The position numbers were made by a program, and so were the translations under genes. A DNA stretch of 64,000 nucleotides from assembly GCA_038198475.1 (NCBI GenBank), contig JBBPZW010000122.1:1001-65000 (forward strand), written 5' to 3'. Source of the DNA: Chthoniobacterales bacterium. Its GTDB lineage: Bacteria; Verrucomicrobiota; Verrucomicrobiia; Chthoniobacterales; UBA10450. Positions 15,433 to 34,268 of the stretch are shown here, in pieces. Under the pieces are notes generated by a model. It ran no database searches and was not told the origin of the DNA. It saw only the letters and a program-made list of their open reading frames with translations. The first letter of the stretch is position 1, and every line of letters begins with the position of its first letter.

Positions 15433-15450
15433 GGAAGCTCGGCAGATGGA

Positions 15451-16286: not shown

Positions 16287-16310
16287 GACAAGGCGATTTT
16301 GCGCGGCCGA

Positions 16311-16502
16311 TCAGAGCTTCGTCTGACGCAGCCGTAGAGCGTTCCCGATAACCGAGACGGAACTCAAACTCATCGCCGCACCGGCGATGATCGGACTGAG
16401 GAGAATGCCAAACCAGGGATAGAGAATGCCGGCGGCGATCGGTATGCCTAACGAGTTGTAGATAAACGCAAAGAAGAGGTTTTGGCGAATGTTGCTCATC
16501 AT
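16311..16502 (-). pseudogene. orphan 3-prime fragment of a copper P-type ATPase gene (last 63 codons of copA)
   Basis: 59 of 63 residues in the translation [63 protein letters not shown] are identical to the C-terminus of the intact CopA at 31800-34268. No upstream ATPase sequence is present. Confidence 0.85.
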
Positions 16503-16508
16503 GGCGCG
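16311..16508. repeat. direct repeat copy A (copA 3-prime end), left boundary of the island
   Basis: Aligns colinearly with 31800-31997. The inner ~135 nt are nearly identical and the terminal ~60 nt more diverged. Similarity ends abruptly after ...CATCATGGCGCG. Confidence 0.85.
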
Positions 16509-16574
16509 GCTGGATTCTCTTGAAAGAAAAGCTCTTTCCGCTCTGCGCTGTTTTCTTTACCGTGGTGTGAACGA

Positions 16575-19500
16575 ATGAGCCGCCTCGAAGAAATTACCCC
16601 TGGAACGACAATTCGAGGCATCCTCCCCGATGCGCTCGTTGATGCTGTCAATGCACAGTGGTTCGGTTCTGAGGCTCTCGAACTGACCTACAAAGACCCG
16701 AGCGGGCGCGTCGGGAACCAGCTCCTTTATCGCCACGATGAGCCTCGATTCGAGGTCGTTGCGGCCGGTCGCCCCTGGAGCTTCGATGGAGATGGCGCGC
16801 TTTTTCGACTGGTTTCCGAGGCACAGCGGATTCGCCTCGCGCATCTGTTCGACCCCGTCCTCGCGGTCCACACATCTCTGGTCGATCCGCTGCCGCACCA
16901 GATCACCGCGGTTTACGAAGCAATGCTCCCTCGCCAGCCACTGCGGTTTCTGCTGGCTGACGATCCGGGCGCCGGCAAGACGATTATGGCCGGGCTGTTC
17001 ATCAAGGAACTCATTGCCCGCGGCGATCTCCAGCGGTGCCTCATTGTTTGCCCGGGCAGTCTCGCCGAACAATGGCAGGACGAACTCCATCGTCGTTTTC
17101 ATTTGCCCTTTGAAATTCTCACCAATGACAAGCTCGAAGCTGCTCGTACGGGCAATTGGTTCCTCGAGAACGACCTCATCATCGCACGTCTCGATAAGCT
17201 CGCCCGCGACGAAGACGTGCAGCAAAAGCTAAGTGCACCGGACTGCCGCTTCGATCTCGTTGTCTGCGACGAAGCCCACAAGCTCTCGGCGACCTTCTTT
17301 GGCGGTGAAGTGAAATACACCAAGCGCTATCGCCTGGGGCAGCTCTTGTCGGGGTTGACCCGCCATTTCCTTCTCATGACCGCTACCCCACACAATGGCA
17401 AGGATGCCGACTTCCAGCTCTTCATGGCCTTACTCGACGGTGATCGGTTTGAAGGGCGTTTCCGCGACGGTGTTCATCAAGTCGACGTCTCTGACCTGAT
17501 GCGGAGGATGGTGAAGGAACGACTTTTGAAGTTCGACGGCCGCCCCCTTTTCCCAGAGCGGATCGCTCATACCGTCCCCTACAAACTCTCAGATCTGGAG
17601 GCTCAGCTCTACAAAGAAGTCACGACCTACGTGCGCGATGAATTCAATCGCGCGGACGCGCTCCAGAACGACAAGCGCGCGGGGACCGTCGGATTTGCTC
17701 TCACCATCCTTCAACGCCGTCTCGCTTCTTCCCCTGACGCCATCTTTCACTCGTTAAGACGACGCCGCGAGCGTCTGCAGAAGCAAATGCGCGAACTGGA
17801 AATACTGCGGCGCGGAGGCGCGTCGATCGCGCTCCTGCCCGCAACGACCACGCTGGATAGCGAAGACCTGGAGGACCTCGACGAAGCCCCCGAGAATGAA
17901 GTCGAGGCCGCCGAAGAGGCGATTCTCGATCAGGCAACCGCAGCTAGCACCATTCAGGAACTCCAAGCGGAGATCGCTACCATCCAGCGTTTGGAAGGCC
18001 TCGCTGCCCAGGTATCGAAGAGCGGGGTTGATCGCAAGTGGCGCGAGCTGGCCAATCTTCTGTCCGTTATCTTTACACCGGCGGGCCTCGCGAGTCGTGT
18101 CGAGGAGTCGCCGCCGCCATATGGCTCTGGCGATATCGAACCCCCCACGCCTTCGCCCAATCAGAAGCTCGTCATCTTCACCGAGCATCGCGACACGCTG
18201 AATTATCTTCAGATGCAGATAGCGACTTTGATCGGACGTCCTTCGTCCATCGTCATGATGCACGGGGGAATGGGCCGTGAGGAACGCCGGAAGGCGCAAG
18301 AGACCTTCCTGCACGACCCTGAGTCGCTCGTCTTGTTAGCGACGGACGCAGCGGGTGAGGGCATCAATCTCCAACGCGCCCACCTCATGGTGAATTATGA
18401 TCTGCCTTGGAACCCCAACCGGATCGAGCAGCGTTTCGGTCGCATCCACCGAATCGGTCAAACCGAAGTCTGTCATCTCTACAATCTTGTCGCCATCGAG
18501 ACCCGGGAAGGAGACGTCTACCGCACTCTGTTGGAGAAGATCGAACAGGCGAGAAAGGCACTGGGCGGCGAGGTGTTTGACGTATTGGGCAAGCTCCAGT
18601 TTGAGGGTCGCTCATTACGCGACCTTCTCATTGAGGCGATTCGTTACGGTGAACTACCAGAAGTTCGCGCCCGGCTCGAGACCGCCATTGCGCACGCGGT
18701 CGACCGGGAGCACATCCAGGATCTCGTCGAGCAAAGCGCGCTAGCCAACGATACGATGGACGCCAGCCGAGTCGCGCGCGTCCGCGAAGAAATGGAGCGG
18801 GCCGACGCGAGACGCCTTCAGCCATTCTACATCGAGTCCTTTTTTCTAGAAGCATTCCGCAATCTCGGCGGCACACTCCGCCAGCGGGAGACACGCCGTT
18901 ACGAAGTCACCCACGTTCCCGCACCGGTGCGGAATCGCGACCGCATTATCGGGGTGGGTGATCCGGTTCTCGCCCGATACGAACGCATCGCCTTCGAGAA
19001 AAATTTAATCGCGCCGCCGGGCGAACCGATGGCCGCGTTCGTCTGTCCGGGGCATCCGTTGCTGGACGCTACGCTCGACCTCACGCTCGAACGGCATCGC
19101 GATCTCTTGCGTCGCGGCGCCGTGCTGGTCGACGAATCCGATCCTGGCACCAAACCGCGCATCCTCTTCTATCTGGAACACGCAATTCAGGATGCGAGCC
19201 TTCTCCGCTCGGGCGAACGACGGACCGTTTCAAAACAGATGCTCTATGTCGAGATCGACGCGGAAGGGCACGCCAAGCATCTCCACTACGCTCCGTATCT
19301 CGATTATCGGCCACTCGCGCCGGACGAATCATCACCCGAAGTCCTACTCCAACGCCCCGAGTGCTCTTGGATCACACGGGAGATCGAGCAGAAAGCTTTC
19401 ACCCACGCGATTGCTCACGTCGTGCCGGGACATCTCGAAGAAGTAAAGAGCCGCCGGCTGCAATGGATTGAAAAAACGCGCGCCGCCGTCAAAGAACGGC

Positions 19501-20153
19501 TCACCAAAGAGATCACTTATTGGGATCACCGCGCCGCGCAGTTGCGCGACCAGGAACAAGCCGGCAAACCCAATGCGCGAGTCAACTCGCAGGAGGCGCG
19601 GCGGCGGGCCGACGACCTGCAAGCCCGACTGGAGAAGCGACTCTCGGATCTAGACAAGGAAGCGCAGATTTCTGCGCTTCCTCCGGTCGTGCTGGGTGGT
19701 TTCATGGTCGTGCCGGCAGGCCTTCTCAACGCGATCGCCGGAACGCCTCCGCCGAAGGCGACTTCTCCCGTCGATACCCAAGCCTCTGCAGCACGGGCGC
19801 GGGCGATCGTCATGGAGATTGAGCGCGGACTGGGGTTCCAGCCGGTAGACCGCGAATTCGAAAAGCTCGGCTACGACATCGAGAGCCACGATCCTGCAAC
19901 CGGCCGACTCCGTTTTATCGAGGTGAAGGGTCGCGTCACCAAAGCCGATACCATCACCGTGACCAAAAACGAGATTATGTACAGCTTGAACAAGCCCGAT
20001 GATTTCGTTCTCGCGATGGTGGAATTTCTCGATGGAGAGAATCACCAGGTACATTACCTACGGCAGCCATTTCGCCGCGAACCCGATTTCGGTGTGACGA
20101 GCGTGAACTACGATTTCGAAGAGCTGATGGCGAGAGCAGCGCCGCCGAAGTAG
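16575..20153 (+). CDS. SNF2-family helicase with C-terminal DUF3883 (restriction-endonuclease-like) domain
   Basis: Helicase motifs LADDPGAGKT (I), VCDEAHKL (II), MTATPHNG (III), and C-lobe ATDAAGEGINLQ...QRFGRIHRIGQT. The C-terminal GYDIES...RFIEVKGR...ITVTKNE...DFVLAMVEF is typical of DUF3883. Confidence 0.85.
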   Translation: MSRLEEITPGTTIRGILPDALVDAVNAQWFGSEALELTYKDPSGRVGNQLLYRHDEPRFEVVAAGRPWSFDGDGALFRLVSEAQRIRLAHLFDPVLAVHTSLVDPLPHQITAVYEAMLPRQPLRFLLADDPGAGKTIMAGLFIKELIARGDLQRCLIVCPGSLAEQWQDELHRRFHLPFEILTNDKLEAARTGNWFLENDLIIARLDKLARDEDVQQKLSAPDCRFDLVVCDEAHKLSATFFGGEVKYTKRYRLGQLLSGLTRHFLLMTATPHNGKDADFQLFMALLDGDRFEGRFRDGVHQVDVSDLMRRMVKERLLKFDGRPLFPERIAHTVPYKLSDLEAQLYKEVTTYVRDEFNRADALQNDKRAGTVGFALTILQRRLASSPDAIFHSLRRRRERLQKQMRELEILRRGGASIALLPATTTLDSEDLEDLDEAPENEVEAAEEAILDQATAASTIQELQAEIATIQRLEGLAAQVSKSGVDRKWRELANLLSVIFTPAGLASRVEESPPPYGSGDIEPPTPSPNQKLVIFTEHRDTLNYLQMQIATLIGRPSSIVMMHGGMGREERRKAQETFLHDPESLVLLATDAAGEGINLQRAHLMVNYDLPWNPNRIEQRFGRIHRIGQTEVCHLYNLVAIETREGDVYRTLLEKIEQARKALGGEVFDVLGKLQFEGRSLRDLLIEAIRYGELPEVRARLETAIAHAVDREHIQDLVEQSALANDTMDASRVARVREEMERADARRLQPFYIESFFLEAFRNLGGTLRQRETRRYEVTHVPAPVRNRDRIIGVGDPVLARYERIAFEKNLIAPPGEPMAAFVCPGHPLLDATLDLTLERHRDLLRRGAVLVDESDPGTKPRILFYLEHAIQDASLLRSGERRTVSKQMLYVEIDAEGHAKHLHYAPYLDYRPLAPDESSPEVLLQRPECSWITREIEQKAFTHAIAHVVPGHLEEVKSRRLQWIEKTRAAVKERLTKEITYWDHRAAQLRDQEQAGKPNARVNSQEARRRADDLQARLEKRLSDLDKEAQISALPPVVLGGFMVVPAGLLNAIAGTPPPKATSPVDTQASAARARAIVMEIERGLGFQPVDREFEKLGYDIESHDPATGRLRFIEVKGRVTKADTITVTKNEIMYSLNKPDDFVLAMVEFLDGENHQVHYLRQPFRREPDFGVTSVNYDFEELMARAAPPK

Positions 20154-20165
20154 AGTTCAGAAAGA

Positions 20166-21875
20166 ATGAGCCGGGCCCATATTCTCAACACGCGGACGAT
20201 CAACTTTCTTGAGCTCATCGGGAATGGGAAGGTTTTTCGCGTTCCGCCCTATCAACGCGATTATTCCTGGTCAGAGGAGCAATGGGAGGATCTCTGGACG
20301 GACATCCTGGAGATGCGGCAACAACCCGAGAGTCGACACTACATGGGCGCGCTTGTCGCCCAAGCGGAGAGCGATCGTGAATTTGTCGTCATCGACGGCC
20401 AACAGCGGTTGGCCACACTCAGCATCTTTGCCCTCGCAGTCATTCAGAAACTTGAGCACATGGCTAACCAAGGGATCGAGCCAGAGGCGAATAAAACTCG
20501 TGCGGGGGAACTGCGTGGCCGGTTCATTGGCGAACGCGATCCAGCCTCTCTGATTGAATCCAGTCGCCTTCTCTTGAATGAGACCGACAACGCCTTTTAT
20601 CAGGACTACCTCATACAGCTCAACGAGCCCCGTAACCCGAGAGGACTTCCAAAATCTAATCGCCTCCTTTGGCAGTGTTTTCGTTATTTCGCGGCGAAGC
20701 TCGACAAGCTAGACGATGTGCAGACAGATGGCGAAAGCCTGGCTCGCATTCTTTCGGAGACAACGGCCCGGCAACTCCTTTTCATCCTCATCACAGTCGA
20801 CGACGAACTGAATGCATACACGGTTTTCGAGACTTTGAACGCTCGCGGTCTGGAACTGACCACGACTGACCTGCTCAAGAATTATCTGTTTTCAAAAATT
20901 AAAGTCTCCGCGGACTTGGCGGCATTACAAAGGCGTTGGCGCTCGCTTGTCGCGACGGTTGCACAGGAGCGTTTCCCGGAATTTCTCCGGTACCACCTCC
21001 TATGCGAGCAGCCGAAGGTGCGAAGCCAGCGCCTCTTTAAGATTGTCCGCGAACGGGTCAAGACTCCCGAAGACGTCTTCAGCCTGCTCAAGGCCTTGGA
21101 ATCCCGCTCCGAATTATTCGCTGCGCTTTCCGACCGCAATCACGGCTACTGGACTGATCGGCCTGACGCGAAGCCGTTCATTCGCGACTTAAACCTATTT
21201 CGAGTTCGGCAAATGACGCCGCTTTTTTTCGCCGCCTGGGAACGATTCGATCCCGACGACTTCGTTCGCACGCTAAAGCTAGTAAGTATTGTTTCCTTTC
21301 GCTTCACGGTAGTGAGCGCGCTTAATACCAATGCCCTCGAACCGGTCTCTCATGAGGCAGCGAAGGCTGTTCTCGATGGTGCAGCCAAAGGGCCGCAGGG
21401 CGTCTTTGAAATACTTCGACAAGTCTATGTCGATGATCAGAAATTCCGCAATGACTTCGCTCAGCTCGTCGTTGACACCCACGGGTACCGTCGCCGTCTG
21501 GCGCGCTACATTCTTTGCAAGCTAGAGGAAGACGCTTCCGGACGTGCCTGTGATCCTGAAACCGATCCGGGAACCATTGAGCACGTCCTGCCGGAAAATC
21601 CTTCAGAGGAATGGACTGATACATTTCCCCGGCAACTCTGGGACGCCGCTCTTTACCGCATGGGCAACCTAACGCTTCTAGAGCCACGCCTGAACCGTGA
21701 CGTCGGCAATGCAATTTATCCGGTGAAGCGCAAAGCCTATGTCGAAAGCGGATATGATATTTCGAAGGCAATCCCCGCGCTTGCGCCCGAAGACTGGACC
21801 TTCGAACATCTCGAAAGTCGTCAGCTAAACCTCGCGAAGCGCGCAGTTCACGTGTGGAGGTCGGATTTTGCTTGA
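20166..21875 (+). CDS. DUF262/DUF1524 protein (GmrSD-like type IV restriction enzyme family)
   Basis: N-terminal [12 protein letters not shown] and [10 protein letters not shown] (DUF262, ParB-like). C-terminal IEHVLPENP...[15 protein letters not shown] (His-Me finger, DUF1524). Confidence 0.85.
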
Positions 21876-22302
21876 TCTCGTTGGCCGTATTCCGTCTGGC
21901 AAAGATCCGTCGGGAGCTTGGACTACATTCATGGAGGACTTTCGCTCCCTCATCGAATCCACCGTACTAGCCAACCGCTTGCAGGCAAACTGGCACGACC
22001 CAATTCGTGATCCGGATGGCAAGTATGTCGTCGACTATCGGGTCAACAGTATGGCGCAACCCGTCTTGATCTTCGCCTTACCGAGCGACGATAAGGTTCG
22101 CGACGCGACGATTACCTTGTTGCAGTTGGAGAAATGGGAGCGTCCCTTCCACTCGCTTGCCGTGTTTGAAGATCAGGAAGAGGTGAATCGTAAGGTGCTC
22201 GCCCGATTCACAGATGTTTGTGAGAAACAGTTTTCCAGTCTCGGGGCAAACAAGGAGAGCATTGTGCGGTATCTCGATGAGACGATGGACCAAGGCGATT
22301 AG
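21868..22302 (+). CDS. hypothetical protein (island orphan 1)
   Basis: 144-aa ORF in operon position. The start is unclear: TTG at 21868 overlaps the upstream stop, or the internal ATG giving MEDFRS. I recognise no motif. Confidence 0.5.
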
Positions 22303-22325
22303 GTTTCATGATGTAGCGATCTGGG

Positions 22326-22967
22326 ATGCAATATCAGAAGGGAATCGCAGAGGAGTATGAGACGAAGCGCCAAATTGCGCTGCTGGCGGGTGCATCGTAC
22401 GTCGTCCGCACAATCAATGACGACGAATTGCGCCGGGTAGAGCGCCAGGACTTTGCGAAGTTGCAATGGCGACCCGAGTCACGGCTTTTCGTTATACGAG
22501 GCGCTGCTGGAAAGCTTGTCGCTCGCTTTGGCGTCCTCGACAAATCGGAGTGCTTCATGCGACTGAGGGAACCTGTGAGAAAACCCGTTTTCGCCTCACT
22601 GGCCTTGCTTCACGCGGAGGCATACGAACCGGCGGAATTTGTGTTGAAGCACCTCCAAAATCCGATAGTCAGCATCTATAAGCCCGCGAAGAGGCTTAGC
22701 TACGTGGGGCTTTCGATCGGCGACCGTGAAAAGCGCTACTCAGCAGTCTTGTCGCTCAAGGGTGATTGCTTGCTGGCTATTGACTTCGAACCAACTGTTG
22801 GTGGAGGCGGCGGAAGAGAAGCAACGACCGGTGGTCCAGTTAATCACAGCAGAGCGGAAGTAGAGCGCACCGCGCTGCGGGAGGCACTGACTGGAGCCTT
22901 CTTTTTGCCGGACCACTCAAACAGCTGTAACACCCAGGTCGCGTTCGAGCGCCGAACAGCGAACTAG
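22326..22967 (+). CDS. hypothetical protein (island orphan 2)
   Basis: 213-aa ORF, same strand, 23 nt after the previous gene. Contains a Gly-rich linker (GGGGG). I recognise no family. Confidence 0.55.
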   Translation: MQYQKGIAEEYETKRQIALLAGASYVVRTINDDELRRVERQDFAKLQWRPESRLFVIRGAAGKLVARFGVLDKSECFMRLREPVRKPVFASLALLHAEAYEPAEFVLKHLQNPIVSIYKPAKRLSYVGLSIGDREKRYSAVLSLKGDCLLAIDFEPTVGGGGGREATTGGPVNHSRAEVERTALREALTGAFFLPDHSNSCNTQVAFERRTAN

Positions 22968-22993
22968 GAATGCCTCCGACCGTTTTGTAGCAG

Positions 22994-25885
22994 ATGACTA
23001 CGCCCATCAAACTCCGCAAGAAACTCATCGAAGTCGCCCTGCCGTTGGAGGCGATCAACAGGGCGGCGGCGCGGGAGAAATCGATTCGGCACGGGCATCC
23101 GAGTACGTTGCATCTTTGGTGGGCGCGGCGGCCGCTAGCGGCGGCGCGGGCGGTGATCTTCTCTCAGATGGTGGATGACCCGTCGGCCAGTCCTGATTTG
23201 TTTCCGACGGAGAAGGCGCAGGAGAAGGAGCGCAAGCGGCTCTTCAAAATCATTGAGAAGCTGGTCCTCTGGGAGAACACGACCAACGAAGAGGTGTTGC
23301 AAGAGGCGCGCGACGAAATCTGGGAGAGCTGGCGGCGCACTTGTGCCGAAAATGCCGGCCATCCGCGGGCGAAAGAACTCTTCGATCGGCACAAGCTACC
23401 CGCGTTTCATGATCCCTTTGCCGGCGGCGGCGCGCTGCCGCTGGAGGCGCAGCGGCTCGGACTGGAGGCATATGCCAGCGACCTCAACCCCGTGGCCGTG
23501 CTCATCAACAAGGCCATGATCGAGATTCCGCCGAAGTTCGCGGGCCGGCCGCCGGTGAATCCTGACGCACGGAAAGGGAAGCTGGACATCAAGACATGGC
23601 GCGGCGCGCAGGGGCTGGCCGAGGACGTGCGCTACTATGGCCAGTGGATGCGCGACGAGGCGGAGAAGCGCATCGGGCATCTCTACCCGAAGATCGAGAT
23701 CACCGCCGCGATGGCGCAGGAGCGGCCCGACCTGAAACCGCTCGTCGGCCAAAAGCTCACCGTCATCGCGTGGCTCTGGGCGCGGACGGTGAAAAGCCCG
23801 AACCCGGCGTTTCGCCAGGTGGACGTGCCGCTCGCCTCCACCTTCATGCTCTCGACCAAGCCGGGCAAGGAAGCCTGGATCCAGCCGGTAATCGTGGACG
23901 GTGGCTACCGCTTCACGGTGAAGGTGGGCAAACCGAAGGACGCCGAAGCAGCGAAGGCCGGCACCAAGCTCGCACGCGGCGCGAACTTCGGGTGCGTGAT
24001 GTCCGGCACGCCGATGACGGGCGACTACATCAAGGCCGAGGGCAAGGCCGGGCGAATGGGCGCACGGCTCATGGCCATCGTGGCGGAGGGGCAACGCGGG
24101 CGTGTTTATCTCGCGCCCACGCCGGAGCACGAGACCACTGCGTTGAAAGGCAAACCAGAGTGGAGACCGGAGCAATCGCTCCCAGACGACCCGCGCAATT
24201 TTTGGACCGTGCAATATGGCCTGACGACCTATGGCGATCTTTTCACAACCCGGCAACTTGTAGCACTGACGACATACTGCGATCTCGTCAGCGAAGCGAT
24301 CGAGGTCATCCGTCACGACGCGCTCGCGGCTGGCCTCGCCACCGACCTCAAGCCCCTTCGAGAAGACGGAATTGGGGCGAAGGCATATGCTGAGGCGGTT
24401 GGAGTCTATCTCGCGTTCGCAGGCGATAAAGCGACCGACTATTGGTCGAGCGTTTGTTCATGGCACTCAAGCAAGGAGCTTATCCGTAATACATTTGGAC
24501 GGCAGGCAATTCCGATGACTTGGGATTACGCTGAAACGAATCCATTTTCACAATCTGCTGGCAACGTCTCCAGTGGTATAGAATGGGCGCAGAAGGCTCT
24601 GAGCGCCTTTCCGACAACAAGAGTGGAAGGATTCGCGACGCAAAGTGACGCGCAGAATCAGACTGTGAGCATCGACAAGGTCGTCTCGACCGACCCGCCC
24701 TATTACGACAATATCACCTACGCTGACCTCTCCGATTTCTTCTATGTTTGGCTCCGTCGTGCGCTGCGATCCACCTTCCCGGAAGTTTTCGCCACTCTCG
24801 TGGTTCCGAAGGCTGAGGAGTTGGTCGCGACGCCATACCGACACGGCACCAAAGAAAAGGCAGAAGCATTTTTTCTTGAGGGCATGACGAGCGCGATGCA
24901 CCGGCTTGCCGAGCAAGCGCATCCGGCATTTCCCGTCACGATCTACTACGCCTTCAAACAATCGGAGAGCGAGAGCGAGTCTGGCACCGCAAGCACGGGC
25001 TGGGAGACATTTCTCAACGCGGTGATTCGTGCTGGCTTTGGCACCAGCGGCACATGGCCGATGCGCACGGAACTTGGCAATCGTATGATCGGCAGGGACA
25101 CCAACGCCCTTGCCTCCAGCATCGTCCTTGTCTGCCGTCCGCGAGCGGCGGATGCGCCCACGGCGACGCGGCGGGAGTTCGTGGCCACGCTCCAGCGGGA
25201 GCTGCCGGAGGCGTTGCGGCATTTGCAGGCGGGCAACATCGCCCCGGTGGACCTCGCGCAGGCCGCCATCGGCCCCGGCATGGCCGTCTTCACCCGCTAC
25301 GCCCGGGTGCTCGACGCGCAGGACAAGCCGCTCGGCGTGCGCGACGCGTTGAAGGCGATCAACCAAGTCCTCGACACCGCGCTCGCCGAACAGGAAGGCG
25401 ATTTTGATTCCGACAGTCGCTGGGCCATCACCTGGTTCGAAGAGAACGGGTTTAACGAAGGCGAATACGGTCGCGCCGAGCAACTATCGAAGAGCAAGAA
25501 CACCAGCGTCACCGGCATCGAGGCCGCGGGCATCGCCAAGGCAAAGGCCGGCAAAGTGAGCCTGCTTAAGCCTAACGAGTTGCCGGCCGACTGGGATCCT
25601 GAGACAGACTCGCGCCTCACGAACTGGGAGATGGTTCATCATCTTATTCGCGCTCTGGAATCCGACGGCGAATCGGCCGCGGCCCAGATCGCGGCCAAGC
25701 TGGGCGGAAAAGCCGAAACGGCGCGCGAGCTTTGCTATCGTCTCTACACTCTCTGCGAACGGAAGAAGCGCGCTGCGGAAGCGCTTTCCTACAACGGTCT
25801 GGTGCAAAGCTGGCCGGAGATCATCCGCCTGGCGAAAGAGCAGGAGCAAGCCATCCCGAGGCAGAGCAGTTTGGCAGGATTATGA
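22994..25885 (+). CDS. DUF1156-type DNA methyltransferase (N6-adenine/N4-cytosine class, DPPY motif)
   Basis: N-terminal [37 protein letters not shown] (DUF1156 hallmark), SAM motif [15 protein letters not shown], catalytic [23 protein letters not shown]. Confidence 0.9.
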
Positions 25886-26721
25886 CCACTAATTCCCACC
25901 AGCCTCCATTTTACCGGCGGCCGCCTGTCATCGAGCGAGTGGTCGGTGTGTATGCTGAGATGAGCGACGAAGTCTTTGAAGGGCGCTTCGACGAGTGGCG
26001 CGCCATAGTGGAGAAGGAGTATCCGGTTTATGAGCCACTGACTGAATGGCTAATTCAAGTGAAGGACACAGATCATCGTGAGGAAGGAGCAATTCCTCTC
26101 TTCGACACGATGCAGCCAGAACTGCGAATCACGCCTCGCTTCTCGCGAAAGTCGTCAAAAGAGAATTTCGACTGGAGCATACGGTGCCCGCGGGGCCAGT
26201 TGACCATGAACATGCACTCCCGTCCCACTCAAGGAGCGGAGCGGCGATATGATACTCTCCGGGCCGAGTTCTCGCGCTGGCTGCCAAGATGGTTGGCGCA
26301 TTTCTCCGTGGAGTCGATGACGCGGGTCACGGCGCATTATGTAAACCTGGTAAACCGGCATACGGTGCCCGCGTTCGTGACCAAAGAGGGACGACTCCTG
26401 CTCGATCAAGTCGTCGCTGTTTTCTCGCAGATTCCCGGGGAACACGAGTGTCTTATCCCGCCTTATGACTGCAAGGCGACGCTGCTCCTGCAGGGACAGG
26501 ATGGTGCAACTTTGCGGCTGAATGTCAACGATTGGTCCAGCAAGGAATTGGGAGCAGCAGTGCGAGTGGATTTCATCGTGGACGCTCCAGCGCAAAACTT
26601 GGAGGCTTCGGGGGAGAAGATTCTGCAATTGCTCGATTGGTGTCACGAGCGTATCATCGAGCGCTTCGAAGTCGTCTTTACCGAGAAAGCCAAAAAGACA
26701 TTTGAGCCTGTAACCGAATGA
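25882..26721 (+). CDS. TIGR04255-like conserved hypothetical protein
   Basis: The ATG overlaps the methyltransferase stop (ATGA at 25882-25885). At 279 aa, its size and N-terminus ([16 protein letters not shown]) resemble what I recall of the TIGR04255 family. This needs an HMM check. Confidence 0.55.
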
Positions 26722-27341
26722 TTTTCGCTCCCGCGTTGCCACCACCTCCGGACGCAGAAGCCGCGGAATCCTACTCACCCCAGCTTCCCTCACGGCTTAT
26801 CGCCCGGATCGAGCCGACCTGGCTCAGAAGGCAGCGGTACGCCTATAAACGGTCGGTTCTGCCCATCGAAGGGGGTCGAGTTCTTTTACGCCTGACGGAG
26901 CCGCCGATGATCGAGGTCGATCCTGCATCGAAGGAATGTGAGGTCATCGGATGGGGAATCCGCATGTCGCGAGATTTCATCCATGAACTGCCAAAGAAGA
27001 TGGCACGACGTTTTCTCGATCTGTTCAGCAAGGCGGACTCCAGCCGGTTGAATGAGGAGGAGCGCCAATGCTGGATGGGGATTCTCGATCAGGTGGATTT
27101 CCCGGCGTTCTGCATCGACCGGGCAGCCCCGCATTACCTGGAGGGGAGGTTGGCTCGGCTTGATCCAGTCTGTCTAGTTGATTGGCACGATGGAGAGCGC
27201 CAGCAGATCGGGCGGGAAGCGGCGCGCTCGCTCGGATGTTTACGCCCGGGAGACGAGTTCGGCGCCTATGTGAAACTGGGGAAACAGAATTCGGTTCTTT
27301 CCATTGAGCGGATCACGCTCCTGGCGCCGGTGGAGGAATGA
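26718..27341 (+). CDS. hypothetical protein (island orphan 3)
   Basis: 207 aa with ATGA overlaps to both neighbours (26718-26721 and 27338-27341). I recognise no motif. Confidence 0.6.
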   Translation: MIFAPALPPPPDAEAAESYSPQLPSRLIARIEPTWLRRQRYAYKRSVLPIEGGRVLLRLTEPPMIEVDPASKECEVIGWGIRMSRDFIHELPKKMARRFLDLFSKADSSRLNEEERQCWMGILDQVDFPAFCIDRAAPHYLEGRLARLDPVCLVDWHDGERQQIGREAARSLGCLRPGDEFGAYVKLGKQNSVLSIERITLLAPVEE

Positions 27342-28393
27342 CCGGGGCTGAGCTCACCATTGATCTATGGGACGTAGGACAAGGTGATTGCACCGTCATT
27401 CGTCTCCCCTCTGGCGGATTGTTGATTATCGACGTAGGGCCGAAAGGAAGTCCGGTGGTGGACTGGCTGAACGAGCGAGGGCGAAGCCCCGCGCAGATTG
27501 AAGCGATTGTTCTAACCCACAATGACGCTGATCATGCAGGGTCGCTGCCCGCGATCATTGCAGAACATAAGCGGCGTATCGGAGCAATCTGGATGTTGCT
27601 CGACCGTGAGATTCACGATCCGCGCTTTCAGAAAATCTTCCGCGCTGCTCTCGAAGGAGAGGATCAGGGTTTCTACAAAATTCGCCGGGTAGAAGATGGG
27701 CAGGAGCTTTGGGCTGACCCGTCCGACCGGACCAGGATTCACGTTATTCATCCTCGCTTCTCTCAGAATATGCTCGCTGCGAACCCCAATGAATCGTCAG
27801 GCGTGATCGTCCTGGATTCGGAGGGACGGCGGCTCTTTGCGTGGCCCGGGGATTTGGAAATCCGAAAGGCAGCGTCCGTCTTGGCAGCGAATAAACCGTG
27901 GATGCTCTTTGGGCCGCACCACGGCGGCCCCTCTGATTATCCGACGAAAGCGCTTCGGAAACGGGCTCCAAGGGAGACATTGAGGAATCGGATGGCTGAA
28001 ATTCGCAATGCTGCTGCGTCACTAAACCCTGCACGGGCGTTTATCTCCGTGGGCACCAGAAACAAGCACAACCATCCTCGACCTGGTTATTTGAGGTTGC
28101 TCGCAGCGACCGGATCCCGAGTCGTTTGTTCTGAACTGACCACGTGTTGCGAGCGAGAAGCCATTCGTCATCACCGGCACGTCTTGCAGGGATCGGGCCT
28201 GCTTGGGCTTCGCCCGGCACGCTCCGGTGTTTCGTGTCGCGGCTCGATGCGGCTTTATCTAAAAGATGGCGCGTTGTTCCCGGATGAATTCGATCAAGAG
28301 CATCTACGGCGGGTTGCCACCTTACTGCGGCCCCAGTGTCTTCGCGTCGGGGATTGGCGACGCGGCAAGCAGTTACCGATTTTCCGAGATTGA
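27338..28393 (+). CDS. MBL-fold metallo-hydrolase (ComEC/Rec2 C-terminal-like)
   Basis: LWDVGQGDCTVIRLPSGGLLIIDVG and THNDADHAGSLP (HxHxDH-type metal motif variant), with a later GPHHG, typical of the ComEC-type beta-lactamase fold. Confidence 0.75.
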   Translation: MTGAELTIDLWDVGQGDCTVIRLPSGGLLIIDVGPKGSPVVDWLNERGRSPAQIEAIVLTHNDADHAGSLPAIIAEHKRRIGAIWMLLDREIHDPRFQKIFRAALEGEDQGFYKIRRVEDGQELWADPSDRTRIHVIHPRFSQNMLAANPNESSGVIVLDSEGRRLFAWPGDLEIRKAASVLAANKPWMLFGPHHGGPSDYPTKALRKRAPRETLRNRMAEIRNAAASLNPARAFISVGTRNKHNHPRPGYLRLLAATGSRVVCSELTTCCEREAIRHHRHVLQGSGLLGLRPARSGVSCRGSMRLYLKDGALFPDEFDQEHLRRVATLLRPQCLRVGDWRRGKQLPIFRD

Positions 28394-28420
28394 AAGGGAG
28401 TTGGCGACACCGGAGCGAGT

Positions 28421-31400
28421 ATGGCGATCACGAACACAGAACGCGTCGGCAAAGCGATGGAACTCTTGCGCGAAGGCTTGCGGCCCTTCGTCCAGCGCGA
28501 GCTAAAGGCGGAATACGGGGAGCAGACTTGGTTTGAAGAAACAAAGAAGATGCTCACGCAGCAGCAGCTCAACTTTGTGAAGAAGAAGGGCGAGCCGGAG
28601 TGGGATGTGGCGATGCTGCTCGGTGTCCTCTGGAACCAGTGGAATGAAGTCTTCCGGAAAACGCTCGGACACGCCGAACGCAGTCTGGTGAGTGAGCTGC
28701 GAGACTCGCGCAACAAATGGGCGCATCAGCAGCCCTTCAGCACGGATGACGCCTATCGCGTCTTCGATAGTATCGGTCGCCTGCTGGCCGCCGTGTCCGC
28801 GCCCCAAACGGCCGAACTCGACAAAATGAAGATGGAGCTCCTGCGGCTCCGCTTTGACGAACAGGCACGAGGAGAGAAACGGAAGGCGGTTGGTTCATTG
28901 ATCGAGACCGGGAGTGCGTTGCCACCGTGGCGGGAAGTCATCACGCCGCACAAGGATGTGGCGAGTGGTCGCTATCAACAGGCGGAGTTTGCCGCTGATC
29001 TCTGGCAGGTGCACCTGGGCGAAGGAACCGACGAATACAAAAAGCCCACGGAGTTCTTCCGACGCACCTACCTGACGGAGAGCTTGCGTCGATTGCTTGT
29101 CGGCGCGGTGCAACGTCTGACCTCAAACGGCGGTGATCCGGTCGTGCAACTTCAGACGAACTTCGGAGGCGGCAAGACGCACTCGATGCTGGCGCTCTAT
29201 CATCTCTTCTCCGGTGCAACGCCCGGCGAGTTGGCGGGGGTCGACGCAGTCATGGCCGAAGCCAACGTGAACAGTCTGCCGAAAGCGAAGAGAGTCGTGC
29301 TCGTGGGTACAAAGATTTCGCCGAGCACCCCAAGCACAAAGCCGGACGGAACGGTGGTGCGGACGCTGTGGGGCGAACTGGCCTGGCAGCTAGGTGGCAA
29401 GAAGGCTTTCAAGAAAATCGCCGCCGATGACGAGAAAGCGACCAGCCCCGGCGATCTGATCCGAGAGCTGCTGAACGAATACGGGCCGAGCCTGATCCTG
29501 ATTGATGAGTGGGTCGCCTACGCGCGGCAGTTGCACGATCAAAGCGACCTGCCGGCCGGCGGTTTCGAGACGCAATTCTCCTTTGCCCAAGCGCTCACGG
29601 AATCGGCCAAGCTGGCGAAGAATTGTCTGCTGGTGATTTCGTTACCGGCATCTGATACCGGCACGTCACCGCACGCGCAGGCAGACGATACGGAAGTAGG
29701 TGGCGTCCGCGGGCGAGAAGCCCTGGATCGACTGCGCAATGTGGTCGGCAGACTGGAATCATCGTGGCGACCGGCGACGGCGGAGGAAGGCTTCGAGATT
29801 GTCCGCCGGCGGCTTTTTGAGCCGCTCACGGGTGACCAATTTAAGAATCGCGATGTGGTGGCGCGGGCTTTTGCCGACTTGTATCGGGCGCAACACGCGG
29901 AATTCCCGCCCGAGTGTCGCGACAGCGAGTACGAGACGCGGCTTAAGGCTGCTTATCCGATTCACCCGGAGATCTTCGACCGACTCTACACCGACTGGTC
30001 GACGCTGCTCAAGTTCCAGCGGACGCGCGGCGTGTTGCGCCTGATGGCCTCGGTCATTCATTCGCTTTGGGAGAAAGGTGACCGCAATCCATTGATTCTG
30101 CCTTCGATGATTCCAATTGATGATCCGCGAGTCCAATTCGAGCTGACGCGGTACCTTTCCGATAACTGGGTTCCAGTGATCGAGAAGGACGTGGACGGAC
30201 CAAACTCTCTTCCGCTGCGGATTGATGGCGAGGTTGCTAACCTCGGCAAGCTGCACGCGACACGAAGGGTGGCGCGGACGATCTATCTAGGCTCCGCTCC
30301 GACTTCCGCTGCGGCGCATCGAGGAATTGAAGATCGTCGAGTGAAACTCGGGTGTGTCATGCCAGGCGAAGCGCCCGCGCACTTCGCAGACGCGCTGCGT
30401 CGGCTGACAGCAACGGCTACTTATCTTTATCAGGACGGGCCCCGTCTTTGGTATTCGACCCAGCCGACGGTCACAAAACTGGCTGAGGATCGCGCCGACC
30501 AGCTTAAGCGCGATACCGACAAGGTCGCGATGGAACTCGATCGTCGGCTTCGGAAGGATTTGGAAAAGAGAGGGAACTTCGCCCGCGTTCACCCAATGCC
30601 GCGAAACAGCGGGGATGTTCCTGACGATCTCGACGCCCGACTCGTCGTTCTCGGCATCGACCACGTCTATACAAAGGAAGCCGGGAGTCCTGCGGAAACG
30701 GCTGCGAAAACAATCCTCGAAACGAGAGGCAATACGCCTCGGATTTACAGAAACACGCTGGTGTTTCTCGCTCCAGATAAGGTTCGTCTGCAAGACTTGG
30801 ACGAAGCCACTCGCAAGTATCTCGCTTGGGAGTCGATCCTGGCGGAAAAGGAAAGTCTCGATCTTTCCCCATTCCAAGTGCGGAACGCCGAAACGCAAAA
30901 GACTGCGGCCGATAGCGCGGTGACGGCGAGATTGCCCGAGACTTATCAGTGGCTTCTCGTTCCGATCCAAAACGGTCCGCAAGGAGCGATTGAATGGCAG
31001 GCATCCCGCCTTTCTGGAAGCGACAGTCTGGCCGTCCGCGCCAGCAGGAAGATCGTTTCCGAGGAACTCTTGATTCCTAGCTTTGGTGCGAACCGCCTGC
31101 GCATGGAACTCGATCGCATCCCTCTGTGGCGGGGTGACCATGTGCCGATCAGGCAGTTAGTCGATGACTTTGCTCGCTATCTCTATCTGCCACGTCTGAC
31201 CGATTCCTCCGTCCTCGTGAATGCGATTCGCGATGGGCTTACTTTGCTAACGTGGGTGGAGGACTCCTTCGCCTATGCCGAAAGCTATGATGAAAGCGCT
31301 GGTCGATATCGTGGGTTACGCGGAGGTCAGGCCGCGGGAATTTACGACGCGAACGACCCAGGATTGTTGGTCAAGCCCGCCGTCGCCAAGCCCGTTCTGG

Positions 31401-31747
31401 ACGCGGTTTCGAAAGAGAAAAGTAAAGACGAAGATGAGGCGGGTAAAAGCACAGACGGAGATGACGGTGACGAAGGAGACGATGGCCGCGGGAAAGGGGA
31501 AGTGGCCGCCCTACCTCGTCGTTACCACGGAACGGTCGGACTAGACCCCAACCGAGTGGGGCGCGACGCGAGCAAGATCGCGGAGGAAGTCATCTCGCAC
31601 CTAACTAGTCTGTTGGGAGCAGAGGTGAAGGTGACATTGGAAATCGAGGCGACAATTCCCGGAGGCGCGAATGAACAAGTCGTTAGGGCGGTGACCGAAA
31701 ACAGCAAGACTCTGAAGTTTGAGCAACACGGCTTCGAAGTAGAATAA
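28421..31747 (+). CDS. DUF499-type ATPase with N-terminal Swt1-like HEPN domain
   Basis: HEPN motif LRDSRNKWAHQ (RxxRNxxAH) near residue 95. P-loop-like NFGGGKTHSMLALYHL and Walker-B-like LILIDEWVAY. Large C-terminal region with an acidic tail. Size 1108 aa. Confidence 0.8.
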   Translation: MAITNTERVGKAMELLREGLRPFVQRELKAEYGEQTWFEETKKMLTQQQLNFVKKKGEPEWDVAMLLGVLWNQWNEVFRKTLGHAERSLVSELRDSRNKWAHQQPFSTDDAYRVFDSIGRLLAAVSAPQTAELDKMKMELLRLRFDEQARGEKRKAVGSLIETGSALPPWREVITPHKDVASGRYQQAEFAADLWQVHLGEGTDEYKKPTEFFRRTYLTESLRRLLVGAVQRLTSNGGDPVVQLQTNFGGGKTHSMLALYHLFSGATPGELAGVDAVMAEANVNSLPKAKRVVLVGTKISPSTPSTKPDGTVVRTLWGELAWQLGGKKAFKKIAADDEKATSPGDLIRELLNEYGPSLILIDEWVAYARQLHDQSDLPAGGFETQFSFAQALTESAKLAKNCLLVISLPASDTGTSPHAQADDTEVGGVRGREALDRLRNVVGRLESSWRPATAEEGFEIVRRRLFEPLTGDQFKNRDVVARAFADLYRAQHAEFPPECRDSEYETRLKAAYPIHPEIFDRLYTDWSTLLKFQRTRGVLRLMASVIHSLWEKGDRNPLILPSMIPIDDPRVQFELTRYLSDNWVPVIEKDVDGPNSLPLRIDGEVANLGKLHATRRVARTIYLGSAPTSAAAHRGIEDRRVKLGCVMPGEAPAHFADALRRLTATATYLYQDGPRLWYSTQPTVTKLAEDRADQLKRDTDKVAMELDRRLRKDLEKRGNFARVHPMPRNSGDVPDDLDARLVVLGIDHVYTKEAGSPAETAAKTILETRGNTPRIYRNTLVFLAPDKVRLQDLDEATRKYLAWESILAEKESLDLSPFQVRNAETQKTAADSAVTARLPETYQWLLVPIQNGPQGAIEWQASRLSGSDSLAVRASRKIVSEELLIPSFGANRLRMELDRIPLWRGDHVPIRQLVDDFARYLYLPRLTDSSVLVNAIRDGLTLLTWVEDSFAYAESYDESAGRYRGLRGGQAAGIYDANDPGLLVKPAVAKPVLDAVSKEKSKDEDEAGKSTDGDDGDEGDDGRGKGEVAALPRRYHGTVGLDPNRVGRDASKIAEEVISHLTSLLGAEVKVTLEIEATIPGGANEQVVRAVTENSKTLKFEQHGFEVE

Positions 31748-31799
31748 GCGATCGTCGTGAGTCGGGATCAGAGGCGCGAGACTTCGAGCAGCGACAAGA

Positions 31800-31997
31800 T
31801 TACAGCTGCACTTTGCGCAGGCGGAGCGCGTTTGCGATGACCGAAACGGAGCTCAGGCTCATCGCCGCACCGGCGATGATCGGGCTGAGGAGAATGCCAA
31901 ACCAGGGATAGAGAATGCCGGCGGCAATCGGGATGCCTAATGAATTGTAGATGAAGGCAAAGAAGAGGTTCTGGCGAATGTTGCTCATCATGGCGCG
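31800..31997. repeat. direct repeat copy B (functional 3-prime end of copA), right boundary of the island
   Basis: Homologous to 16311-16508 with many synonymous differences. It carries GCCTAATG where copy A has the host-enriched GCCTAACG. Confidence 0.85.
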
Positions 31998-34268
31998 ACT
32001 GAGACGGACGGCCTTCTCGATGCCGCGGAGATCGCCTTTCAGGAGCGTGATACCGGCGCTTTCCATGGCCACGTCGGTGCCGGTGCCCATGGCGATACCG
32101 ACATCGGCCGCGGCGAGCGCGGGCGCGTCGTTGATTCCGTCACCGGCCATGGCGACGACTTCGTTGCGTTCGCGTAACGCGCGCACGCGATCGTTCTTGT
32201 GCTGCGGTTCGACGCCGGCTTCGATTTCGTCGATGCCGAGCCGGCCGGCGACGGCATTTGCGGTCCGCTCGTTGTCGCCGGTCAGCATAATGATTTTCAT
32301 GCCGAGTTGATGCAGCTGCTCGATCGCGGCGGGCGTCGATTCTTTGATCGGGTCGGCTACGGCAATGATGCCCATCGCCCGACCGTCCCAGGCGACGAAG
32401 ATGACGCCATCGCCCTCCGATTGCAGGTCGGCGGCGCGTTTCGCGAAGTTGTGCATCTCGTGCACGCCCTGGTCGTGGAGGAATTTCGGTTTGCCCACGA
32501 CAACATGTCGTTCGCCGACGCGACCTGTCACTCCGCCCCCAGTCGTTGATTGGAAATCAGCGACCGCGGGAATCTCGATGCCGCGATCGGTGGCGCCTTT
32601 CACCAGTGCCTGGGCTAAGGGATGCTCGCTGTTTTTCTCGACGGCAGCTGCGAGCGAGAGCAGTTCGTTCTCCGTTGTTGAATCCGCTGCGACGATACCT
32701 GTCACCGCAGGGCGACCTTCAGTCAGCGTGCCCGTCTTATCGACGACCAGTGTGCGCACTTTCTCCATCAATTCGATGGCCTCAGCTTTTTTGATCAAGA
32801 CTCCGGCTTGCGCGCCGCGACCGACTCCAACCATGACTGACATGGGCGTCGCCAAACCGAGGGCACATGGGCAGGCAATGATCAACACCGCCACGGCATT
32901 CACGATGGCATAGGCAAAGCGCGGCTCGGGTCCGAACACTGCCCAGATGACGAAGGTAAGGATCGCGCTCGCGATCACCGCGGGAACAAACCAGCCGGCT
33001 ACTTTGTCGGCGAGACCTTGAATCGGCGCGCGGCTGCGCTGCGCTTGCGCGACCATCTCGACGATTTGCGAGAGAACGGTTTCGTTTCCGACGCGCTCCG
33101 CTTCAATCACGATGCTGCCGGTTTGGTTCACCGTGCCGCCGGTGACGCGGTCGCCGGGCGCTTTCTCGACCGGCATCGACTCGCCCGTGATCATCGATTC
33201 ATCGATGTTGGTCCGGCCGTCGATGACGTGGCCGTCCACCGGAACCTTCTCACCGGGCCGGACGCGGAGGTTGTCGCCTTGCTGAATTTCGTCGAGCGGC
33301 ACCTCCTGCTCGCTGCCGTCGCGCACGCGGTGCGCGATTTTCGGTGCGAGATCGAGCAGCGCGCGAATAGCGCTGCCGGTTCGGCTGCGCGCACGCAGTT
33401 CAAGCATCTGGCCGAAGAGGACCAGAACGATAATGATGGCGGCGGACTCGAAGTAGACTCCGATTTTTCCGTGCTCCGCAAACGAGGGCGGAAAGCTCTG
33501 CGGGAAAAGCATCACGACTGCGCTATAGAAGTAGGCCGCGCCGACGCCGATCGCGATGAGGGTAAACATGTTGAGCGAGCGGTGGACAATGGACTGCCAA
33601 CCGCGCTGAAAAAACGGCCAGCCCGCCCAGAGCACCACGGGTGTGGCGAAGGCGAATTGAATCCAGCGTGACGGATCGCTCATCACCCAGCCCCCGTGGG
33701 CCAGGGCGGGAACGAGATGCGCCATGGCGAGCAGGAACACAGGCAGCGCGAGTGCGCCGCCGATCCAGAACCGGCGTGTCATGTCGCGTAGCTCGGTGTT
33801 GTCCTCTTCGTCACCGCCGACTACGCCTTTGGGCTCGAGTGTCATGCCACAGATGGGGCAATTGCCGGGATGATCCTGCTCGATCTGCGGATGCATCGGG
33901 CAGGTGTAAATAGTCTTCGCCGGCCCGCGGAACAACGGATTGCGTTCCAGCGCCATCCCGCATTTCGGGCAACTGCCCGGGGTATCGCTTTCGACGCCTT
34001 CGCACATTGGGCAGAAGTATTTCTTCGCCGGCTTGCGGGCCGTCGCGACTTTCGCCGTCTCGTTAGGCGAATGATCGCCGTCGTGACAGCAGGAGTGTTC
34101 GTGCGTTGGTTCGTCGGTGCTCTTGCCCTGAGCGATGAATGCGTCCCGGCAATGTTCGGAACAGAAATAGAATTTCCCGTCTTCTCGCTCCACGACCGCG
34201 GCGGCATTCCTGGGATCAACCGTCATGCCGCAAATCGGGTCGCGAACCGTGGAATCAATCTCCTTCAT
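31800..34268 (-). CDS. copA: copper-translocating P1B-type ATPase
   Basis: CPC transmembrane motif ([11 protein letters not shown]), DKTGTLT phosphorylation site, [10 protein letters not shown] hinge. N-terminal YHS/TRASH-like [10 protein letters not shown]...YFCSEHC plus two YxCPMHP...CPxCGM (HMBD) modules. Confidence 0.95.

Follow-up and report, generated by a model that had tools for sequence, protein, structure and literature searches.

A predicted Hma anti-phage operon without mobility genes between two diverged copies of the copA 3-prime end in a Chthoniobacterales bacterium

Introduction

The e14 element and phage 21 integrate in the icd gene of Escherichia coli and supply a replacement gene end. 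In Streptococcus thermophilus, cis-mobilizable elements (CIMEs) reportedly occupy the fda 3-prime end, and pseudo staphylococcal cassette chromosome (pseudo-SCC) elements that lack ccr genes are said to occupy the 3-prime end of rlmH/orfX in staphylococci. Minimal mobile elements, integrase-free defence hotspots between core genes, are known from Neisseria, E. coli and Pseudomonas. In this work we analysed a 15.3 kb island located at the 3-prime end of copA, the gene of a P1B-type Cu+ ATPase, in a Chthoniobacterales bacterium (Verrucomicrobiota). The DNA analysed, called the window below, is 64,000 nt long (assembly GCA_038198475.1, contig JBBPZW010000122.1, positions 1,001 to 65,000 of the forward strand). 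The island consists of a predicted anti-phage operon of the Hma type, it lies between two diverged copies of the copA gene end, and no integrase is encoded in it.

By definition, a CIME has kept both attachment sites, attL and attR, and has lost the genes for integration and transfer (PMC5704250). The copA island resembles CIMEs and pseudo-SCC elements in its position in the 3-prime end of a conserved gene, in direct repeats that include the gene end, in an intact target, in the absence of integrase and transfer genes and in cargo of an adaptive type. It differs from them in that no element with a cognate integrase was found at copA, no decayed mobility remnants were seen and the host is a Verrucomicrobium. 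Furthermore, its repeats are long (approximately 204 nt) and diverged, not short and identical as in CIMEs, and their role as attachment sites is putative. With e14 and phage 21 the island shares an alternative version of the last ~50 codons of the target, a native end left behind as a fragment and mainly synonymous differences; however, those elements encode their own integrase beside the attachment site, and the island encodes none. As with minimal mobile elements, varied cassettes occupy one interval, mobility genes are missing and the flanking gene is mosaic. By contrast, exchange in the flanks of minimal mobile elements normally leaves these in single copy and duplicates no gene end, whereas the island has a 204-nt diverged duplication and a fixed junction.

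Hma was named as a candidate defence system in the PADLOC paper (PMC8565338). A bioRxiv preprint reports that 63% of Hma systems carry embedded genes, that mobility-associated proteins make up 3.1% of these genes and that HEC-06 itself has antiphage activity (10.1101/2024.01.29.577857). The island has the hmaA-hmaB-hmaC order and the co-oriented embedded genes, including a HEC-06 GmrSD-like gene, that are described for Hma (PMC8565338; 10.1101/2024.01.29.577857) and, like other Hma systems, it shows a patchy distribution, indicating horizontal transfer. The consulted passages of these papers describe no mode of insertion (PMC8565338; 10.1101/2024.01.29.577857), and neither flanking direct repeats nor a duplicated gene end were present in the 26 other complete Hma loci compared here.

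Hma systems with embedded genes, integration with a replacement gene end, integrase-less islands bounded by attachment sites and defence hotspots are already known. New are copA as the attachment point, a Verrucomicrobial (soil) host, a compact island that contains the operon only and the same junction in two diverged hosts. The finding is incremental and not surprising, whether or not a recombinase was involved, because its ingredients have already been described. Defence systems move fast between bacteria, yet many defence islands show no moving machinery, and this locus is an unusually clean case: a complete Hma operon without extras appears to have landed in a housekeeping-type gene of two diverged hosts, at an identical base in both, repairing the gene.

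Results and Discussion

Two diverged copies of the copA end bound the island

A repeat search revealed one long direct-repeat family in the window, at 16309-16512 and 31798-32001 (204 nt, 87% identical, spacing 15489). The ungapped alignment has 28 mismatches in 203 nt (86%), and the encoded peptides are identical at 59 of 63 residues. A first-pass annotation, made from the letters alone, had reported that the last codons of copA occur twice in the same orientation, and the precise alignment agrees. It had also taken the two tails for alleles of different lineages and not for a recent duplication; this fits the distribution of the differences, which is uneven over the three codon positions (4, 3 and 20; chi-square p=4e-5) with a synonymous majority, and the divergence between the orphan and the working tail (synonymous divergence, dS, 0.54-0.67; dN/dS below 0.1). 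Besides one A/G change at codon -11, the residue changes are confined to the last 8 codons. On the gene-internal side, similarity ends in ...GCTCATCATGGCGCG, followed by one mismatch and CTG (...CATCATGGCGCG(G/A)CTG), and a 26-nt identical block precedes this edge; on the outer side, it ends approximately 2 nt or less from the stop codon. The repeats bound the island, and one of them completes the copA 3-prime end, as in site-specific integration. The features of the locus are collected in Table 1.

Table 1. Features of the island, its flanking repeats and the adjoining host genes (window coordinates).
Feature	Coordinates	Strand	Evidence or remark
Host left flank, DUF6428-arsR-arsC(LMWP)-GNAT operon	14495..16256	-	Pfam; begins 55 nt past the orphan stop
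Left direct repeat, orphan copA 3-prime end	16309..16512	-	attL-like; putative native host copA tail
Orphan open 63-codon fragment	16311-16502	-	nothing upstream of the fragment
26-nt identical block CGCGCCATGATGAGCAACATTCGCCA (gene orientation)	16483..16508, twin 31972-31997	.	adjoins the inner edge; putative crossover region
Island left end, 62 nt non-coding upstream of hmaA	16513..16574	+	promoter presumed here
hmaA, SNF2-type helicase with C-terminal NOV_C/DUF3883	16575..20153	+	PADLOC HmaA 1678 bits, full length; Pfam
Embedded GmrSD-like type IV restriction enzyme, HEC-06 family	20166..21875	+	PADLOC HEC-06 695 bits, residues 1-567
144-aa ORF without family	21868..22302	+	90% identical in L166
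213-aa ORF without family, recurrent Hma accessory (putative)	22326..22967	+	45%-identical homologue right after hmaA in L169
hmaB, DUF1156 DNA methyltransferase	22994..25885	+	PADLOC HmaB 1592 bits; Pfam DUF1156, MethyltransfD12
Embedded three-gene module	25732..28393	+	ORFs 25732-26721, 26718-27341 and MBL-fold 27338-28393
hmaC, HEPN_Swt1 and DUF499 ATPase	28421..31747	+	PADLOC HmaC 1154 bits; Pfam
Island right-end spacer, hmaC stop to copA stop	31748..31797	.	81% homologous to the L081 spacer
Right direct repeat, working copA 3-prime end	31798..32001	-	attR-like; putative import with the island
copA, P1B-type Cu+ ATPase, 822 aa, intact	31800..34268	-	Pfam E1-E2_ATPase, HMBD, YHS, Hydrolase
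csoR, next after copA	34265-34555		
ORF, open reading frame; MBL, metallo-beta-lactamase.

Exact look-ups with the CopA and HmaA proteins of the window gave no match; relatives were gathered by homology searches, and the comparison loci carry labels of the L001 type. By its copA relatives, the window belongs to the Chthoniobacterales. Host-type sequence starts directly past the stop codon of the orphan. The ars operon of this left flank is syntenic with L013, L002 and L024, and synteny with relatives also extends over the DUF1440, AraC and TPR genes of the left flank and over csoR, DUF4396, the multicopper oxidase and cusABC on the right. The body of copA is 89-93% identical at the nucleotide level to that of L161-L165, the closest relatives. 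A tblastn search revealed no further copA fragments in the window.

The orphan might have nothing to do with the arrival of the island and be what is left of a second, decayed copA or of a long duplication (tandem or of the target site). Paired copA paralogues do lie near each other in L065, L068 and L079, but such pairs are only 50% identical, and the almost entirely synonymous divergence of the two tails in the window excludes a duplication followed by neutral decay. Moreover, two hosts whose flanks are unrelated have the fragment cut at an identical nucleotide (described below), and the window holds no other copA remnant. The first-pass annotation had named a relative with the fragment but without the island, or a recombinase encoded nearby, as observations that would overturn its interpretation; no relative with a fragment alone was seen, nor was a recombinase found. 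We regard an origin unrelated to the island as highly improbable.

The same island has the same junction in a second host

The closest homologue of HmaA (99% amino acid identity) is encoded on L166, where a distinct 63-codon copA orphan lies directly upstream of hmaA. Beyond this orphan there is a degraded TMEM175-like gene, of the type present downstream of copA in L013 and L002. L081, which was reached via HmaC, overlaps L166 by 1202 nt at 99.9% identity; it then covers hmaC, a spacer homologous to that of the window and a full copA, which extends past the junction. L166 and L081 together make up a second complete island, in a different host context and with a different downstream flank, while L170 is a third source for the left junction. 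The first-pass annotation had proposed a search for the island beside other copA genes, and L166/L081, together with the left junction of L170, is what this search yielded. In L167, L168 and L169, where HmaA is 89% identical, the gene is not located at copA.

The junction between orphan and island is at the same nucleotide in the window, in L166 and in L170. Between L166 and the window, 161 of 202 positions are identical in the orphan, compared to 383 of the first 400 nt of the island (Fisher p=2e-9); between L170 and the window, the orphan side agrees at 51/60 positions and the island side at 160/160 (p=5e-6). From the boundary at 16508 (GGCTGG...), the island side of L166 matches the window at 150 of 160 positions and the adjoining orphan DNA differs (17% between the two orphans), the closest differing base being 8-13 nt from the junction. 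L170 was not accepted as independent proof of site-specific insertion, since a gene-conversion tract ending at the boundary or an assembly chimera would look alike. The structure is not an assembly artefact of the window contig, because both junctions are present in independent assemblies (orphan-HmaA in L166 and L170, HmaC-copA in L081). The initial view of an element that enters a gene 3-prime end with a replacement end is strengthened by this second host, in which the same island joins another orphan at the same nucleotide.

The insertion point is identical in the two hosts, and the divergence values suggest that the events were independent. Between the island copies, dS was 0.01 for GmrSD, 0.17 for HmaA and 0.36 for HmaC, whereas host copA gave 0.85-0.98 between the two orphans and 1.07 in the available stretch of the body (29 codons), the host estimates being based on 29-66 codons only. 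By this difference, and by its depletion in the host word GCCTAACG (see below), the island is foreign DNA, much younger than the host split, that arrived at one position of copA in two lineages. Most differences between the two orphans fall on third codon positions (9, 4 and 28 at the three positions; p=8e-6) and their dN/dS is approximately 0.06, so each of them was a working gene end under purifying selection for most of the divergence.

One ancient insertion in the common ancestor, followed by vertical descent, would also place the junction at an identical position in both hosts. It would have to be combined with several later changes: the left flank would have been rearranged, the orphan converted by the working tail, and to this would be added repeated precise losses in the island-free relatives and recent patching of the hmaA-gmrSD part between lineages. 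Precise loss would be easy by recombination between the 204-nt repeats, and the island copies are indeed mosaic, with only the hmaA-gmrSD part near-identical. However, hmaC, which is the most diverged stable gene of the island and lies beside the junction, has a dS of 0.36 against ~0.9-1.07 for host copA, and the low dN/dS of the orphans is not what this scenario would leave. In addition, the relatives that nest between the two hosts include at least nine without the island, so that precise loss would have to have happened many times independently, and the host word GCCTAACG is 10-fold rarer in the island (see below). A single ancient insertion is quite unlikely in our judgement.

L166 belongs to a genome binned as Blastocatellia (GCA_013811815.1, contig JACCUN010000422.1), and a near-identical copy is present in a Pyrinomonadaceae metagenome-assembled genome (MAG). 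The organism of L166 and L081 is represented by GCA_013811815.1 and the MWWA01 metagenome. Its copA fragment and TMEM175-like flank match Chthoniobacterales (86-88% amino acid identity to L013 and L002), and the Blastocatellia bin is probably a binning error. The TMEM175-like gene of L166 is truncated and fused.

The orphan is probably the native copA end

Over 57 codons, the proportion of synonymous differences (pS) between the orphan and the tails of L161, L164 and L165 was 0.31-0.44, comparable to that among these tails (0.31-0.38). The working tail (pS 0.46-0.59) falls outside this cluster of nearest-relative tails. At repeat positions 31, 49, 58 and 146 the orphan has the allele of the near relatives and the working copy has another one; at position 4 this is reversed, the near-relative allele being in the working copy. 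This switch of alleles points to a reciprocal exchange between positions 5 and 30, that is in the 26-nt identical block, where we infer the crossover. With L166 and L081 included, the interval shrinks towards positions 5-10. The end of the working tail, RKVQL, resembles that of the island-side tail of L081, RKVEL.

The first-pass annotation had also suggested that the orphan is the native end. The tail cluster and the diagnostic sites lend moderate support to a native orphan and an imported working end, only moderate because the informative sites are few. The original argument, based on the retention of the host word GCCTAACG in the orphan, did not hold: all of the copA relatives and the island-side tail of L081 carry the word at this position, and its absence from the working copy of the window is due to a private G-to-A change.

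Other indicators were discarded. The first 80 copA loci did not assign either 203-nt copy to a lineage, both being 83-88% identical to everything, and the excess synonymous divergence of the working end is not informative, as the ends of all close relatives exceed their bodies. The spacer and working end were also considered as a part of a relative's sequence downstream of copA, but no extension into any relative was obtained. Sliding identity of the window copA against its five closest relatives showed no sharp break at the junction.

No mobility functions are encoded in the island

Pfam domains of integrases, recombinases and transposases were absent from the island ORFs, from the antisense ORFs inside the island (which gave no Pfam match of any kind) and from the other ORFs scanned across the 64 kb, and no tRNA was found in the window. 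This corroborates the earlier description of the locus as lacking all four. The ORF of L166 that was scanned has no recombinase domain, and the precomputed annotations of the L166 and L170 genes list none. Only the 144-aa ORF is common to all of the island copies, and it is too small for a tyrosine or serine recombinase. No exact match to the island-end motifs was found in viral contigs.

Terminal inverted repeats were not found at the island ends. A transposon was discarded on this basis, together with the length and divergence of the duplication (204 nt) and the lack of a transposase. The dif site of E. coli had no match with up to 3 mismatches in the window, a weak test because dif may differ in this phylum; a Xer-dependent integrative element (IMEX) was rejected since no dif-like core was seen at the junctions with the same query, and this rejection shares that weakness.

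As no recombinase is encoded in the three recovered copies, the island is non-autonomous. The reading we favour, and hold tentatively, is that of a non-autonomous CIME-like island, exchanged at an att-like core by a site-specific recombinase acting in trans or since lost. A single reciprocal (Campbell-type) exchange would have taken place at a fixed point of copA, just upstream of the conserved MMSNIRQN codons and approximately 203 nt before the stop. The incoming DNA would have brought its own last 66 copA codons, so that the pump stays intact but ends in an imported tail; the original tail of the host would have remained as the orphan on the far side. The recombinase, whose involvement we infer, would have been provided in trans by a helper element or formerly present and then lost. 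An excised circle would join the island ends as ...CATCATGGCGCG followed immediately by GCTGGATTCTC... If the helper recombinase exists, copA would be a new attachment site in Verrucomicrobia, and the island a defence hitch-hiker of the CIME type.

The copA-ars interval and spread without a recombinase

The cargo found after copA differs in each relative: two membrane-protein genes in L013, a resistance-nodulation-division (RND) efflux system in L002, L024 and L161, and ArsP with other genes in L162; a TMEM175 gene with a fatty-acid hydroxylase and a type I restriction-modification system also occur in the interval. The interval after copA is a cargo hotspot, and the duplicated tail is specific to the Hma island. 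The first-pass annotation had supposed that copA abutted the ars operon before the insertion, but copA is not directly followed by ars in any relative.

In L164, which encodes a 93%-identical CopA, a DUF4396 gene and then hsdR, the gene of a type I restriction R subunit, come right after copA (L164:3371-6671, the contig ending in hsdR). Other defence cargo uses the same interval after copA.

Among L161-L165, synonymous divergence was 0.31-0.57 in the last 57 codons of copA and 0.17-0.38 in the preceding 300 codons; L161 and L162, for instance, differ by 0.56 in the tail and by 0.17 in the body. The copA tail, which adjoins the variable interval, is a recombination hotspot, the 3-prime ends of close relatives being recombination mosaics by this measure.

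The island copies themselves (window 16575-22256, L166 and L170) are patchworks of 100-300-nt segments, in which now one pair and now another is identical and the third copy is 10-20% different. Either homologous exchange among island alleles is very frequent, or the metagenome assemblies contain strain chimeras.

A Gammaproteobacteria MAG (L051:12202-18987, NCGK01000014.1) has another, unrelated insertion at the copA tail that lacks an integrase and is accompanied by duplicated gene ends. In this case, an operon of 6.4 kb for sucrose synthesis (amylosucrase, PfkB kinase, SPP and SPS; no recombinase) lies between copA and truA, and it is flanked by diverged direct repeats of the ends of both genes: 12202-12317 and 18596-18711 for copA (73% identity), 12368-12462 and 18893-18987 for truA (71%).

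Spread without any recombinase is a serious rival, because the copA ends and the island copies are mosaic. Cassettes would be swapped at the copA-ars hotspot by homologous recombination in the flanking genes, as in the minimal mobile elements of naturally transformable bacteria. The Hma operon would have come at first from a relative in which it lay downstream of copA. At its origin, one arm of the incoming DNA would have recombined homologously in copA, while the other end would have been joined illegitimately in the recipient copA tail (homology-facilitated illegitimate recombination), giving rise to the orphan. During the subsequent spread, the working copA and the orphan would act as portable homology arms that admit the island to any host whose copA is similar, and gene conversion would keep the orphan tail-like. 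We see this as a real possibility, although we lean away from it.

Several observations weigh against the CIME-like reading, and a number of them also speak for recombinase-free spread. Elements with a cognate integrase, which could act as helper at a copA attachment site, were absent downstream of copA in the 80 copA loci and in L161-L165. There is no recombinase next to the repeats, as would be expected of a prophage, an integrative and conjugative element (ICE) or an integrative mobilizable element (IME). The reconstructed attP, that is the joined island ends, contains neither a palindrome nor a dif-like core. Decayed remnants of mobility genes were not detected and the island has nearly no spare DNA, whereas a CIME that descends from an ICE or a prophage would usually show them; lack of mobility genes and of spare DNA in all three island copies is what exchange by homology alone would give. 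The cargo varies after copA from relative to relative, with no orphans or integrases in view. The higher divergence of the copA ends than of the bodies indicates frequent crossovers in the tail, and the patchwork structure of the island copies is likewise compatible with homologous exchange; recombination this frequent could also set the end points of gene conversion at the island boundary. At the right junction, the comparison of L081 with the window showed no drop in similarity. The imported tails of the window and L081 (dS 0.69-0.79) are not clearly closer to each other than the host sequences are, and the working and orphan tails are closer within a genome (dS 0.35-0.67) than between genomes (0.69-0.98). 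L051, the only one of the 80 copA loci with a second copA fragment, provides another recombinase-free cargo between duplicated gene ends at copA. Finally, all of the comparison loci are metagenome contigs or MAGs, in which strain chimeras are possible.

Nevertheless, recombinase-free spread meets difficulties at the junction. A left arm inherited with the island should be shared near the junction, but the orphans differ by 17% up to 8-13 nt from it, while the island side is 94-100% identical. In the window, the alleles do not switch between native and foreign across the long central identity blocks of 41 and 28 nt, where RecA crossovers would be expected, and RecA acts poorly on an arm of 203 nt with 80-87% identity. 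The region's most conserved motif has its edge exactly at the junction, which would be a coincidence if the join were illegitimate. The scenario also presumes natural competence in this lineage.

In a more speculative variant, which we consider doubtful, the duplicated copA tail would be a portable homology handle: after natural transformation, this handle and the working copA would allow host recombination to insert the operon, without a recombinase, wherever a similar copper pump is encoded, and GCCTAACGA within the handle, if it is a DNA-uptake signal, might serve as an uptake ticket for foreign defence DNA poor in such signals. The sucrose operon of L051 hints that self-targeting handles may be a general, overlooked route for cargo operons without mobility genes. 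If no recombinase is involved, the locus would be a natural test case for defence cargo spread by homology handles.

The word in question, GCCTAACG (usually GCCTAACGA), is the most abundant 8-mer of the window (32 copies vs. 1.4 expected, approximately 24-fold) and is found about equally on both strands (e.g. at 440, 3241, 14579, 16446, 34061 and 62933). Of these copies, 31 are outside the island and one is in its 15.3 kb (ten-fold depletion, binomial p=0.002). Chthoniobacterales relatives have it at a density of 0.3-0.8 per kb, and it was absent from the loci of other phyla. The pattern resembles that of a DNA-uptake signal or another genome-wide functional word; such a word of the clade, GCCTAACG(A), with one copy inside the copA tail, would be in line with spread by uptake and homologous recombination. 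The searchable literature contained no description of GCCTAACG as a bacterial genome word.

The cargo is a compact Hma operon with embedded genes

The 15.3 kb between the repeats form a single plus-strand operon, identified by PADLOC as an Hma defence system with embedded genes: a GmrSD/HEC-06 gene, a three-gene MBL module and two ORFs without family. Non-coding DNA at the island ends is restricted to the 62 nt before hmaA on the orphan side and the 50 nt between the stop codons of hmaC and copA. The first-pass annotation had offered a decayed element as one explanation of the island; a compact Hma operon with nearly no non-coding DNA at its ends argues against a decayed prophage or ICE. The 62 nt contain no match to the sigma-70 consensus, and neither promoter nor terminator consensus was found at the junctions. 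The right-end spacer does not resemble any sequence downstream of copA in the relatives.

As in described Hma systems, hmaA, hmaB and hmaC are co-oriented and in this order, with three genes in each of the two intervals, hmaA to hmaB and hmaB to hmaC (the limit is approximately 3), and the PADLOC matches to all three are near full length. The GmrSD-like gene encodes both halves of the enzyme in one protein, an N-terminal GmrSD_N (DUF262, E-value 6.5e-37) and a C-terminal GmrSD_C (DUF1524, 1.3e-23), and matches the HEC-06 profile. The island is predicted from these matches to be an Hma anti-phage operon with acquired embedded defence genes.

The 144-aa and 213-aa ORFs had no match in Pfam, NCBIfam or PADLOC. 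In L166 and L170 the 213-aa ORF is swapped for an unrelated 346-aa ORF. In the MBL module, the third gene alone has a Pfam match, to Lactamase_B, and its product weakly resembles the nuclease domain of ComEC. The true start of its first ORF (25732-26721) probably lies after the hmaB stop. The module is absent from L166 and L081.

In L169, an unrelated Hma locus, a homologous MBL trio (37-45% amino acid identity) lies upstream of hmaA at L169:6533-8995, and the homologue of the 213-aa ORF is at L169:13608-14246; both are at other operon positions than in the window. Because both recur beside hmaA in this unrelated locus, the module and the 213-aa ORF are best regarded as Hma accessories and not as mobility genes, and they look like mobile accessory modules.

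Compared between the window and L166 (L166:7919-11002), hmaB has a dS of 0.78 and a dN of 0.14, and its products are 963 and 1027 aa long, respectively; the neighbouring GmrSD gene has a dS of 0.01. This suggests that the methyltransferase gene was replaced by a different allele, possibly a specificity switch.

The window contains one other direct repeat, at 46024-46082 and 50777-50835 (59 nt, 81% identical). Its copies lie where two small ORFs of the minus strand (46023-46541 and 50776-51195) have their 3-prime ends, and bracket a block with DUF4440, multicopper oxidase and OEP genes. The two ORFs probably have paralogous ends.

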